Source of the DNA: a virus
Lineage: Duplodnaviria > Heunggongvirae > Uroviricota > Caudoviricetes
Strand: one strand, 5' to 3'
DNA: 46,931 bases
Virus record (IMG/VR): IMGVR_UViG_2522572023_000008
Made by a program: the position numbers. Below are positions 27,001 through 33,000 of the stretch, in pieces; position 1 is the first letter of the stretch; every line of letters begins with the position of its first letter.

Positions 27001-30000
27001 GTCTGTCATGAAGGGCACAAAATAAACGCCCTCACTCTCCCTGTTTTTATACCCGCCGTACACGGTGTCGTACTGGGTAGCGTATGTATTTTTCCAGTAA
27101 TACGTCGTGTCACCACAAATCCACGGCACATCTGCAGCACTGCCACCATGGCACTGCGCGTTAAACACGGAGAGGTCAGCACGAAACTGTGTCAGCATGG
27201 CTGTAAACAGCGCAGGTTGCTGTGCGTGGGTGGCGGCGCTCATGTCAAACTCTCCCTGCATCCAGCACACCGCCAGCAACACATTTTTCGGGTTCTTCTG
27301 TAATGCAGCTTTAGTGCGCGCAATCAGGTCCTGATATAACGGTTTACCCACACCCCAGCGTGCCGAATCCTGGCTGGCCCCCGTGTCCGCACTGAATGTC
27401 CCCTCCGCGCCCTGGGTGAATGCCGAACCACCACGACAGCATGGTACCAGCAGGATCCCCGCGTTATTCGGGATATACGGGAGCAGTTTTTTGGCAATAT
27501 GTAAGCCCTGGCCGACACAGCCGTACTGCCCTTTGCTCAGGTCTGCCTTCGGATGATTCAGCGTACTCATATCCTGCACATCATGCAGGCAGTGGTCGGC
27601 CGGAATAATATCGTTATATCTGCAGGCAGCCCCACCCGGCGTCACTGTACTGCGGCGCGCCAGCTGTTTAATGCGCGGATCCGGAGCATCGTATGAATCC
27701 GGCAGCGGAAGCCCTTCACCGTAAGCCATGGCATTGGACTGCCCGGCCAGTACGATGACGTAGTACCAATCCGGCTCAGATGAAGGGCCGACCTGTGGCT
27801 CTCCTTCAATAGCCACCGCCTGCATCAGTGTGTACGGCGTAATGGCAACCGGTCCGCCGTATGGCTGCCAGCCCTCTTTCAGTTTGTGTGTCAGCTTTTC
27901 CGCAAGGTCTGACGGCGACGCCGCCCTGACAACATCATAATGTTTAAATGTCATTATTCCTCCCGGCCGGGATAGTGTATTAAATCAGATATGGAGTGGG
28001 CTGTAGTCCGGAAGCCTGAATGACACACGGGGACTACAGCCCAAGAAATGAAAAAAGGCCACGCAGTTGCGCAGCCTGATAAACCCTGGTTAAAATCCAC
28101 ACGATAACAACACAACAATATCAGTATCTCATGCTATTGCCCGAACCCATTCGGGCATTTTTTACCCATAAAAAATGCCCCTCCGGAGAGGGGCATGTTT
28201 GCATGCACATTCTTTTTCTTGCATGGTGCCGGGTGCCTCCCGGTGAATTCAGTATCAGCACCTGAATCCGCGATTATCACATATACCTGCTTGCTGATTG
28301 CCCCTCCGCACAGGGGGATTCACCATGCAGTAGTATTTTTAATAAACAGTAAACAAAAAAATCAAGCATTATGCAGGCTGTTTCTTTTTATCACCGGCCA
28401 CAGCAATACCACAATGCCGCAGACCAGCACCCCATCCGCCAGCACCGACATGATTCTGCTGGTGAAATCCACCATCACCACCAGAAACAGCAGGAGTGCA
28501 GCCACAGCCAGGCGCAGTTTTACCGTCACTGGTGATTCTCCAGACGAAGACCCAGAACACCGGCAATCTCTTCCAGCACCTTGCGCTCTTCCGGCTCAAT
28601 TTCGCCGTCTGCCTCCGCAATGGCCACCGCCACATCCAGCACATCTTCCGCTTCACGCGTATCGTGTTTCACATCCTCAATCTCACGTAACGCCGCACGA
28701 CGACCAATTTTAAAGTTCGTATCCAGCTGACCGATAATGGTTGCGCTAATCGCATTAATTTCCGAGGTAAACGCAGACAACGCAGGCTGATTACGTAAGA
28801 CCTGTTCGATCTTCGCTTTCTCGGATGCCTCGCATTCACCATCTGCATAGGCCACCAGGTATGCAGCGTTAATCACCGCCTGTGCCAGATCGCGTTTCTC
28901 AAACTTTTTAATTTCCGCTGCCGCTCTGCGGGTTTTCTTTTTGAAGATTCCAAACATCGTGACGTTCCTTTGGGTGGGTGAGCCAACGCCCGGGAGCGAT
29001 CTGCCCACAGAGAAAGTCACACTGACCACTCCGTAAGCTCACCCCCGAAAGGCTCTGTGGTTGATATGCGCCGGGCGTGGCGCAGATACAAAAAAGGCCC
29101 GCCGAAGCGAGCCTGGAAAATAAGTGTGGCGCGTTGTACTGGAGTCGAACCAGTGACCGATTGCTTAGAAGGCAATTGCTCTGTCCGGCTGAGCTAACAA
29201 CGCAGAATACCGATAATGGACCGCCATCGGGGACCCGGCCCCGCACCAACAACCCTGTTATGGTGTCGTCTGCTCTTCCTGATAAGCTAATGGCGGTATG
29301 TGATGGTGGCCCTTGCTGGATTTGAACCAGCGACCTGGCGATTATGAGTCGCTCGCTCTCACCACTGAGCTAAAGGGCCGGGCCAAAAAATAATAATCAG
29401 ATGAAAATCAATAATCAAGCCCTTGCCTGGATACATATCTGTCCGGCGGGAAGCCATAATAGCGGTGAAATACAGAAATAAAGTAGGACCAGCTTGAATA
29501 ACCGCATTTTTCTGCTACAGCCTGTCCATATCCATGCCGGGAACATAACATATTTACAGCAACACGCATCCGCTCTTCCAGCAACAAGCGACTGAACATG
29601 CCCCCTTCATTTTTCAGTTTTGTCTTTAACAAACTCTCACTCATATGCAACTGTAGAGCAATCGCACCAAGCGTCCAGCTTGCTGATATATCTGTCTGAA
29701 TTATCGCCCTGACTTTGGCACTTATGCTGGATAAACATCCACTTAAAAACAATGACATCCGTTCATCTGTTTCAAACAGAGACAGGCAGGCCATCATAAG
29801 AAACATATCCGTGACCTCTCCGGAAAATCCCTGGCTGGTAATTAAAGCCGCAGCCAACGCAGGATTGTTGGGTTCCAGCAACAGGTAAAGCGGAATGTCA
29901 GTCAGACGAGTCCTCGTCAGCTTATGCTGACTTTCCAGATATTGACTTACGACGGATTCGCTTATATCGACAATTTTAACTTTGCCATAATGCATAAGGA

Positions 30001-33000
30001 AAAGCTCCCTGATGCATTTGGTGGCCAGAACGACTGAGCCTGGCTTAAGTGACAACGTATCCTTTTCAAGAAAAATATTAATTGGGGAGCAAACCATGAT
30101 AACTGAACAGACAACAGCCATTATAATTTTACTTTCATTAGCAATTGGTTAGCTCAATTATAGCCCCAAAAGGTAAATTATCATCAACACATAAGCAAAG
30201 GACTGACAGGTGCCGCTAACACCCACCAGCCGCCCATTTACCACAAATAAAAAAGCCTTCAGGACTGAAGGCGTCTGTAACAACCGCACTGATAGTCTGC
30301 CAGACCCGCCATAACAAGCTGGGTCAGTATTAACTGGCAGCGTTCGCGTGAAAGGTAAGTATTCTGCGCAATCTCCCCGACTGTCGCCGGTTCGGTGACG
30401 CTTAATTCATTAAACACCACTCTGGCGGTTTCTGTCATATCCTGCTGTTTCAGCATGTCTTTTTCCCTTTTCCGGTTAACGTGACACACCAATAACTCTT
30501 GTCGAAAAAGCCAGCAAGTTGAAAGACCGGTATTAGCAACCACCAGCGCGTTTAACGCCCCGTGCCGTTTTTCAGTCATAAAAAAACCCGCAAAAAGCGG
30601 GCTCTTTCAAATGTCCATGTCTGCTATTCGCCTCGCGGTACAGCTTTGCGAAGCTTACCGGAATTGAAGCAGTTTTTACGTCAAAAAGCAATAACTTTTT
30701 TCTCTATACCAAAAGCCATAACCATTGGTTTGTACAAAATAAATTCTGCCACCTTTAGCCAATGCTCAATGCGTCTTTCACAGGTTCTTAAACTCCATTC
30801 CGGATGTGCATCATTCAGCAATTCAGCCATTTTGCGCTTAGTCATCCCCCGCCCCACATAACGCTGACTCAGAACATTGAGCAGCCCGGGATAACCTGCC
30901 AGTACTTCACCAATAACCCTGTCGATTATTAACGCCTCTGAATCGGTACAATGTGCCAGCCAGCTTTTTTGATTGCCGTTGATCATATCCCGCAAAAAAG
31001 CCTCAAGTTCAGGTTTGTCCAGACCCGCTTTTTTCATCCTCCGGAGCGCCTCGTTAATTGCCGTTTTTGTCAGCTTTTTAGAGGTCAGTAATTGGTTGAA
31101 CATATTTCCCGTCTTACCGTCGCCAATATACGACCAACGCCCCCACATACGCAGTTTCCCCTGGATCCAGACACTTTCCAGCGTTTTCAGGCGTAAATGC
31201 TCACCGCTTTTGCCTGTAATTTCCGGGTATATCATATTTATGCTCACTCACTTTCAATTTTGTAAATCTTCACGCCCAGCCGCCCACCAGAAACGAGCTG
31301 GCCGCGCACAATATTGATTTCATCAAACTGCTCGTCGTCTATGAGAAGTCCGGCATGCGTCAGCGCATCCAGTGGTGCTTTCAGGATATTGTCCAGGTCA
31401 CGACGGCGCTTATCCGGTGGCTCTGCAATAATCTTTATCGCCAGCCTTCCGGACAGGTTTAATTTCAGCCGCTGCTGGCGAACAATAAGCGCCACAGCCC
31501 GGCGATAACGCTCACCGGCTTTTGATACAAAATATGTGCTGCCACGACGTCGCCAGTAGGTGTTCACCGTCGGCGGGTAAGGCAAAACAAACTCTATACG
31601 CATCAGTAACCTCTTTTACCCGAGCACGCCGGTTGCAAAGGCGTGATCAAGAAAACGAAAAATTAAATCAACCTGGGAACCATGCTTTTCTTCGAACGCC
31701 AGCGGATCCGCATGAAGCTCGTTGTGATGCTCCCGACACAGCGGTAGCGTGAAAATATCGTGGGATTTTGTTCCCATTCCACCCTGACCATGACCAATCA
31801 GATGATGAGGATCGTCCGCTGGCTTACCACAACACGCACACGGCTGTGTCTTTACCCAGCGTGTGTATTTCTCATTTACCCAGCGGCGACGTTTAGGTCG
31901 TTTCATGAAGGATTCCGGAGACTCCGGATCAACGGCAATGCTGACCACCGTCTTTTCCTGTGGTGGGTTCTGTTGCTGGTGGGTGTGAGGCGGTAGCGCA
32001 ATATTTTTTGTGCGCTGCTTCAGTATGCTGGTGGCGGTCTGTTCTCCCGGTATGATGTCGCTTTCACGGTATACGGAGCGGATTTTTTCCGCCGGTAATC
32101 CCAGAGAGCGACGCGATACTGCCTCAGGTAATGCGTCCACCACCTGATTGCAGACTGCCCACCAGGATAATTCAGCCAGCGATAATTCCCGCTCCTGCGT
32201 GCCATTCATTACATGGCGTATGACGTCAATCATCCAGGCTGTCAGATTTTGTTGAGTAAGTTGCTCAAGTGATTCGGAGGTCTGGTCGCGCAGCTGGTTG
32301 TCGCAGTGCCAGCACAACACCATTGCGCCAGCACCGTAACTGTGAATAACGGTTTCGCTGTGATGATAATCGCCGTGTGGCCACTGGCAGGATTTCACGT
32401 GACGTAATAACCAGTCAGACAGTGCACCAGCGCCGCCAGCTGCACGAATCACCCGCTCATCGCTGAAAAATGGCAGCAGTGATTTATCTTCCGCCAGCGG
32501 CTGGCGAACAGCAGGAACCGCTCCAGATGGCAGCGCCCGCATGTTTTTCGGTTCCGGCTCCACCAGCACCCTGCCGCGATGAAAAACTGGCAATGATTCA
32601 CGACCGGGCTTAAGGACCACCAGCCCGAGTTCCGGAACCAGAACAGGTCGAAGTAATACCCGCACATTACCTCCAGACGCGCTGACGGTAGCAGGCATGT
32701 GTCCGTGGCAGATGTGCACGAACAGGAAGATATACAGAAACGGTCCAGGTCAGACGATCAGCGTTCAGACTCCGCTCCACACGGACACCGCGACGCAGAT
32801 ACGCCTCTTGAAGCATATCTGCCTCATCGATCGTACAGAACAGATAGTGAAACCAGCCATACTGAGGCGCACGAAAACGCCTCCCCTGCTTAATTTCCGG
32901 GTCGGCTTCAGAATTGTGGGATTTTATGTGTTGTGTCATCGGATTCTCCGGTGACAGCAGGTGTCAGTTGTTCAGGCTGACTGCGCGAATTGTAAGGCAA

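Follow-up and report, generated by a model that had tools for sequence, protein, structure and literature searches.

What does an AraC-family regulator do in the late-control region of a lambdoid prophage, and are the genes that it acts on those of the phage or those of the bacterial host? The question is raised by IMG/VR virus record IMGVR_UViG_2522572023_000008, a stretch of 46,931 nucleotides (analysed at its full length and called the window here) that is 100% identical to positions 2,420,021-2,466,951 of the chromosome of Escherichia coli O145:H28 strain RM12761. The original prediction had placed a regulator of this family at 29408-30273, as a cargo gene and a candidate for acting on the host, in the manner of such prophage genes in enterohaemorrhagic E. 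coli (EHEC). Judged by the comparisons below, this is a regulator already known and characterised, in a near-identical allele: PsrB of E. coli O157:H7, where Psr stands for 'prophage-encoded secretion regulator'. We call the gene psr. We consider, with a probability of roughly 85%, that it encodes a functional PsrB-type activator of the AraC/XylS family, belongs with GadX, GadW, YdeO and AppY in one subgroup, is cargo in the leader between the Q gene and the lysis genes, and acts on the host via gadE, the master gene of acid resistance.

Identity of the regulator

The psr open reading frame (ORF) occupies 29408-30121 on the reverse strand, with an ATG start. The predicted AraC-type gene is thereby confirmed, but 30273 is not its end, as the range first given adds a 137-bp spacer and a terminator to the gene. 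The gene and the parts of its product are as follows.

29408-30121, reverse strand: psr gene, PsrB-type allele, 237 amino acids (ORF, Pfam matches, identity to Sakai ECs_2191 and to the EDL933 OI-57 copy)
Residues ~1-125 of Psr: N-terminal regulatory domain
Residues ~134-233 of Psr: C-terminal AraC/XylS domain with a double helix-turn-helix (HTH)

Comparison with known prophage AraC-like regulators, which had been proposed as a check, gave a clear answer. The window protein is identical to ECs_2191 of Sakai prophage Sp11, read from its upstream ATG, at 235 of 237 residues (99.2%, no gaps), and the copy at 1,905,274-1,905,987 of O157:H7 strain EDL933 is identical to ECs_2191. The two differences from the Sakai and EDL933 protein are Y196 to H196 and R211 to W211. 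Against PsrA (Z1789 on O-island 50, OI-50; ECs1087 on Sp4) the identity is 91.6% over 237 amino acids, again with no gaps. The 20 substitutions are concentrated in residues 39-174, the last 63 residues are identical, and the 130 nt at the 5' end of the gene, together with the promoter spacer, are nearly identical to the window. Both Sakai genes lie in the same position as psr, past Q and a small ORF and before the ileZ/arg transfer RNAs (tRNAs).

These names depend on two assignments. The equation of ecs1087 with psrA comes from a 2026 paper by the group that gave the family its name (PMC13502914). The assignment of the ECs_2191/EDL933 copy to PsrB (Z2104) is made indirectly, because EDL933 has only two megablast places for psr; because psrB is published as z2104 within OI-57, for which the published coordinates are 1,849,324-1,929,825, a range that includes the EDL933 copy; because Sp11 carries the OI-57 effectors nleG2-3, nleG6-2 and nleG5-2; and because ECs_2191 is 90.7% identical to PsrA, against a published PsrA-PsrB identity of 90%.

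The resemblance to the psrB prophage extends well beyond the gene. The window and Sp11/OI-57 are alike from the replication region to Q and through the small ORF, ileZ, a degenerate argN, argO, TerB and DUF3927, and many neighbouring proteins are identical by WP accession. The two prophages differ in their integration sites, which are tRNA-Ser(CGA)/mtfA for the window and, for the psrB prophage, ydfJ (Sakai Sp11) or rspB (PV15-279), and in their effectors, nleB2 in the window prophage and an nleG cluster in the psrB prophage. One order is common to the window, Sp4 and Sp11/OI-57: Q, small ORF, terminator, psr, ileZ/arg tRNAs, a 616-amino-acid esterase, lysis genes and a pch gene. In Sp4 this reads small ORF, terminator, ECs_1087 (annotated 'AraC-family transcriptional regulator'), ileZ-argN-argO, the 616-amino-acid esterase and pchA; Sp4 differs in its Q type, in an intact argN, and in the absence of the TerB and DUF3927 genes that stand between the tRNAs and the esterase in the window and in Sp11/OI-57.

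At the DNA level, psr carries the psrB state at every variable site from nucleotide 5 to 567 and the psrA state at 586, 618 and 631. It is this PsrA-like patch that produces H196 and W211, both of which are the PsrA residues. Such a pattern points either to gene conversion over a short tract or to changes derived in the O157 psrB lineage. The psr gene of phage phiSTEC1575-Stx2k agrees with the window at two of these three sites.

In RefSeq the window gene is labelled only 'helix-turn-helix domain-containing protein', and the Sakai genes ECs_1087 (28678-29391 of the Sp4 locus) and ECs_2191 (39933-40646 of the Sp11 locus) are given an internal methionine start and 195 amino acids, while the 237-amino-acid frame is open at both. 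An N-terminal motif, M-x-V-x-C-S-V-I, is common to Psr, PatE, YdeO, GadW and AppY, and its conservation makes the 237-amino-acid start the credible one. The Sakai starts are therefore probably annotated 42 codons too late, as far as sequence conservation can tell; correcting start and label is the annotation value of the present analysis.

The product of psr matches phrog_1450 (1.3e-98). Its C-terminal part (residues ~141-230) matches Pfam HTH_AraC (2e-11, 44.1 bits, cut-off 26.6) and HTH_18 (4.7e-09, 36.9 bits, cut-off 33.6), both above the Pfam gathering scores. The best solved match of this domain is the DNA-binding domain of GadX, 3mkl (phmmer, 4.7e-19; Foldseek TM-score 0.79, root-mean-square deviation 2.5 A, 42% identity). 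For the full-length structure model, the best matches by fold are CsvR, Rns and ToxT, virulence regulators with two domains, at low TM-scores. The predicted structure supports a two-domain architecture and is too poor to judge a fatty-acid pocket of the Rns/ToxT kind.

More distant relatives of Psr belong to the same subfamily and length class and have gadE and the acid fitness island as their targets: GadW (34% identity), YdeO (31%) and the AppY of prophage DLP12 (29%), all over the full length, and GadX, with 42% over the C-terminal domain only. The NCBIfam equivalog models of YdeO (NF007407; 106.2 bits over residues 1-229, cut-off 348) and of GadX (NF007432; 88.4 bits over the C-terminal half only, cut-off 500) mark these two as relatives and not orthologues. 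PatE (Z0321; ECs_0287 on Sp1) is likewise a prophage-borne AraC-like activator of acid resistance, can be aligned end to end and shares the motif in the form MxxxCSVI. However, it is 37% identical, which rules it out as orthologue or closest relative, and it is located near pinE and tail-fibre remnants rather than in a Q leader.

The psr slot and its transcription signals

Around psr, the window contains the following features.

30681-31235, reverse strand: Q-like late antiterminator gene of DUF1133 type (DUF1133, 3.7e-105; Phage_antitermQ; phrog_753, 'anti-termination protein Q-like')
30580-30609, reverse strand: strong intrinsic terminator, downstream of the Q-like gene by about 75 nt (fold -18.2 kcal/mol)
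30259-30456, reverse strand: small ORF of 65 amino acids, a RefSeq coding sequence (phrog_331, 2.1e-37)
30245-30272, reverse strand: intrinsic-terminator-like hairpin and T-run (stem 30272-30255, GCCTTCAGTCCTGAAGGC, 7 pairs, then TTTTTTATTT)
30157-30184, reverse strand: promoter-like site, ATGATA-16-TATAAT (sigma-70 consensus scan, 10/12), about 35 nt upstream of the psr ATG
29304-29379, reverse strand: phage tRNA ileZ, tRNA-Ile2 with anticodon CAT (annotated tRNA-Ile), 28 nt past the psr stop
29127-29203, reverse strand: phage tRNA argO, tRNA-Arg with anticodon TCT (tRNA call)
29095-29114, reverse strand: terminator-like hairpin past argO (8 pairs, 6 of them G-C, then TTTTTGTATC)

The gene thus stands where the original prediction had it, between the Q region and the phage tRNAs. 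It also has the AT-rich upstream region described there: the 137-bp spacer 30122-30258 has 38.7% GC, against 51.7% for the window, and falls into the lowest 6.5% of 137-bp windows, while 120-bp windows over 30040-30219 have 33-36%. The psr coding sequence itself has 44% GC, against 52% for the window. Both hexamers of the promoter-like site within the spacer are free of variable sites across the window and the Sakai psrA and psrB loci. A permissive-threshold Rfam search of 29000-30750 returned nothing in the spacer.

The terminator that had been noted upstream of the gene was recovered as the hairpin and T-run at 30272-30245. This hairpin overlaps with the stop codon at which the small ORF ends, and so belongs to that ORF, upstream of psr. 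Its fold energy is modestly better than that of shuffled sequences (z = -1.6, equalled by 12 of 200 shuffles); it is identical in Sakai Sp4 and has two differences in Sp11. From its form, we take it as a putative terminator that would end the small ORF and shield psr from transcription arriving from upstream.

Insulation in the full sense, as first claimed, holds on this upstream side but not downstream. No convincing terminator was found between the psr stop (29408) and the first tRNA (29379), and the next good one comes only after tRNA-Arg. The hairpin there, at 29114-29095, is the likely 3' boundary, and the transcription unit appears to be psr plus the tRNAs. In its low GC, its upstream terminator, its promoter-like site and its ileZ/arg tRNA neighbours, the cassette resembles a phage moron of the kind found in the stx slot, the late leader between Q and S, and it has both terminators flanking it (30272-30245 and 29114-29095) and a distinct composition. 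It differs in that psr lacks a terminator of its own ahead of the tRNAs.

In the 100-bp spacer between ileZ and argO (29204-29303), neither ARAGORN nor Rfam called an argN. The spacer stands where argN (anticodon TCG) lies in Sp4 and in Stx phages and keeps only the 3' part of it; Sakai Sp11 likewise has two tRNAs. A special dependence of psr on the adjacent rare-codon tRNAs is ruled out by its rare-codon use (ATA, AGA, AGG and CGA), which at 3.8 per 100 is mid-range for the prophage, the extremes being pch (7.6) and nleB2 (7.3).

Nearer to Q, the terminator at 30609-30580 is far better than chance (z = -5.0, with none of 200 shuffles as good), and we regard it as a candidate tR', which would end a short leader RNA made from the late promoter, similar to lambda 6S or StxS. 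A TTGACG box precedes this terminator; the promoter scan called no promoter in 30580-30680. An isrK-like Rfam match at 30581-30654 scored 19.8 bits, under the gathering score.

The small ORF precedes psr also in Sp4, Sp11, EDL933 OI-57 and phage phiSTEC1575-Stx2k, and may be a partner of psr or a mere part of the cassette. Read in a longer form of 106 amino acids (30259-30579), it has a weak winged-helix resemblance (Pfam TrmB, E = 0.0069, below the cut-off). In Sakai Sp4, its C-terminus is altered by a 1-nt deletion.

On the lambda paradigm, the insulation of psr would hold only in the lysogenic state. Once the prophage is induced, polymerase that starts near the Q gene and is modified by Q would probably pass both terminators and read through into psr and the tRNAs, as happens at stx in Stx phages. 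Among sequenced phages, phiSTEC1575-Stx2k carries a 91.6%-identical copy, and this inducible phage has the small ORF, psr, ileZ, argN and argO at 4643-7324, directly before stx2AB; judging by this arrangement, Psr and Shiga toxin would share one late leader there. Because the psr-tRNA cassette occupies the same Q-controlled slot as stx and abuts stx2AB in this phage, induction could flood the cell with Psr. We can imagine that induction overrides both terminators and so links the lytic switch (in some phages, the release of toxin as well) to GadE activation and to the shut-off of LEE (locus of enterocyte effacement), and that in addition the O145 allele is a stronger repressor of secretion than O157 PsrB; this combined proposal is doubtful and is offered as speculation.

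The same position could be taken to mean that Psr mainly controls genes of the phage, such as those for late or lysis-lysogeny functions, since it is encoded inside the late leader next to Q and, in the inducible Stx2k phage, directly upstream of stx2. However, the characterised near-identical proteins act on the host genes gadE, yhiF and hdeA, and the relatives GadX, GadW, YdeO, AppY and PatE are all acid-resistance regulators. Moreover, psr is absent from many lambdoid phages that have these Q and lysis modules, as 3263 genomes match a query containing the tRNAs and only 726 match psr. A mainly phage-directed role is therefore highly improbable.

Action on the host and the O145 allele

In O157, PsrA and PsrB have been reported, according to reviews, to raise the expression of gadE, yhiF and hdeA, to increase acid resistance and to repress LEE type III secretion indirectly; binding of PsrB is described at the gadE promoter and at -132 to -45 of the hdeA promoter, psrA aids persistence in sheep, and psr genes occur exclusively on prophages, side by side with effector loci and pch regulators (PMC10877973, PMC8565820, PMC4456613, PMC3299786). 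Induced PsrB in O157 gave higher acid resistance and mouse passage. The related AppY, likewise encoded by a prophage, has gadE as a direct target too (PMC10057817). The window prophage has the company expected of the family, as it carries both nleB2 and pch. The PsrB match, the shared slot and the presence of pch and an effector on the same prophage bear out the view that this is a host-directed AraC-like cargo gene of the EHEC kind.

Transferred to RM12761, these findings suggest the following course of events. In the lysogen, psr would probably be transcribed from its own predicted promoter in the AT-rich spacer behind the terminator. The C-terminal double HTH would bind AT-rich sites in two host promoters, those of gadE and hdeA, and Psr would raise the expression of gadE and yhiF (dctR). 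GadE would then switch on glutamate-dependent acid resistance and repress the LEE operons, so lowering type III secretion, while pch on the same prophage would push the LEE in the opposite way.

Such a transfer presupposes that the O145 allele behaves as do O157 PsrA and PsrB. We infer that it does, because only two residues differ from PsrB and both are PsrA states; psrA being functional, H196 and W211 should favour function of the window allele. It is quite unlikely, in our view, that these two residues, which lie in the second HTH, have changed the specificity or strength of DNA binding so that the O145 protein is a strong secretion repressor like PsrA, or unlike both proteins. The sole two protein differences from O157 PsrB do coincide with PsrA, arise from the PsrA-like patch described above, and include position 211, at which the window has W and the majority of the family R or K. 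Yet just two residues are involved, and PsrA and PsrB have been reported to act on the same targets.

The gene is widespread and intact. Of the 5426 complete E. coli genomes searched, 726 have psr, and they hold 1324 places for it in all (median, two each). All 727 matching records span at least 80% of the gene, and each of the 60 rows sampled has an annotated coding sequence under the match and no pseudogene flag. The hosts include O157, O145, O111, O121, O104:H4, the neonatal meningitis E. coli (NMEC) strain S88 and porcine enterotoxigenic E. coli (ETEC), and in a large protein collection the named sources are all E. coli or Shigella. About ten Psr subtypes of 236-242 amino acids can be distinguished, with 57-99% identity; frameshifted variants, which lack the second HTH, are few (P0026, P0036, P0047 and P0048). 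The original prediction had named pseudogenisation in related strains as one observation that would refute it; instead, the matches are full-length and frameshifts are rare.

Several observations weigh against a functional, host-directed regulator acting as PsrB does. Deletion of psrB alone in O157 had little effect on secretion, the reported effects being seen in trans or on induction, so that psrB in its native state may contribute little or redundantly. Besides the window copy, RM12761 has a second psr place. Consensus matches as good as the promoter-like site number 3 in the 2.4-kb region, against 2.9 expected from shuffles, which is chance level. The structure model has a predicted local distance difference test score (pLDDT) of 68 and is thus of moderate confidence only, and W211 could change DNA specificity.

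Taken together with other features of the locus, the first two of these points allow a different reading: that psr is intact and physiologically silent or redundant, a xenogeneically silenced passenger on a defective prophage, with the second psr, GadX, GadW and YdeO covering the same promoters. The frameshifted integrase, the AT-rich upstream region typical of H-NS/Hha targets, and the response of psrA to an Hha-targeting small RNA (sRNA), HnrS, which raises its expression (PMC13502914), all fit such a passenger. But a full-length frame is kept in 726 genomes of many serotypes with few frameshifts, induced PsrB lifts acid resistance and mouse passage in O157, and no variable site has appeared in the promoter hexamers between the psrA and psrB loci. 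We consider a silent or redundant psr unlikely. The published HnrS signature (15 nt of complementarity to mazF at its 3' end) had no match in the window or in the Sp4 and Sp11 loci; HnrS is located on Sp9, Sp10 and Sp12, which fits with its absence from the window.

Little of this is new in kind: the O145:H28 outbreak lineage has a near-identical PsrB allele together with a gene identical to pchA and with nleB2, on a prophage at serU/mtfA. On present sequence evidence, the brake on type III secretion that Psr and GadE provide in O157 is very likely present in this non-O157 EHEC too.

Host prophage and other cargo

The window is a lambdoid prophage, on the minus strand in RM12761, adjoining tRNA-Ser(CGA) and mtfA (serU/mtfA). 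Its integrase is annotated as frameshifted (44873-45923, forward strand), and the tRNA-Ser(CGA) side lies at 45951-46040 on the reverse strand. Besides psr, two cargo genes bear on virulence.

1-981, reverse strand: nleB2, gene of a type III effector, at the end of the prophage (RefSeq annotation)
23219-23533, reverse strand: pch, PerC-family LEE activator (identity 100% to Sakai PchA and 99% to PchB)

An activator of the LEE (pch) and an indirect repressor of it (psr) are therefore encoded on one prophage.

The window also contains several small RNA loci away from the psr cassette. Between the esterase gene and DUF3927, gathering-level Rfam matches place AgvB, an anti-GcvB sRNA, at 28102-28163 on the forward strand (96.5 bits) and, back to back with it, STnc100 at 28164-28354 on the reverse strand (143.9 bits). 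A hok/sok toxin-antitoxin locus is found at 33525-33849 on the reverse strand (sok, 113.5 bits), and the sRNA DicF lies beside dicB, at 41412-41463 on the forward strand (76.7 bits).

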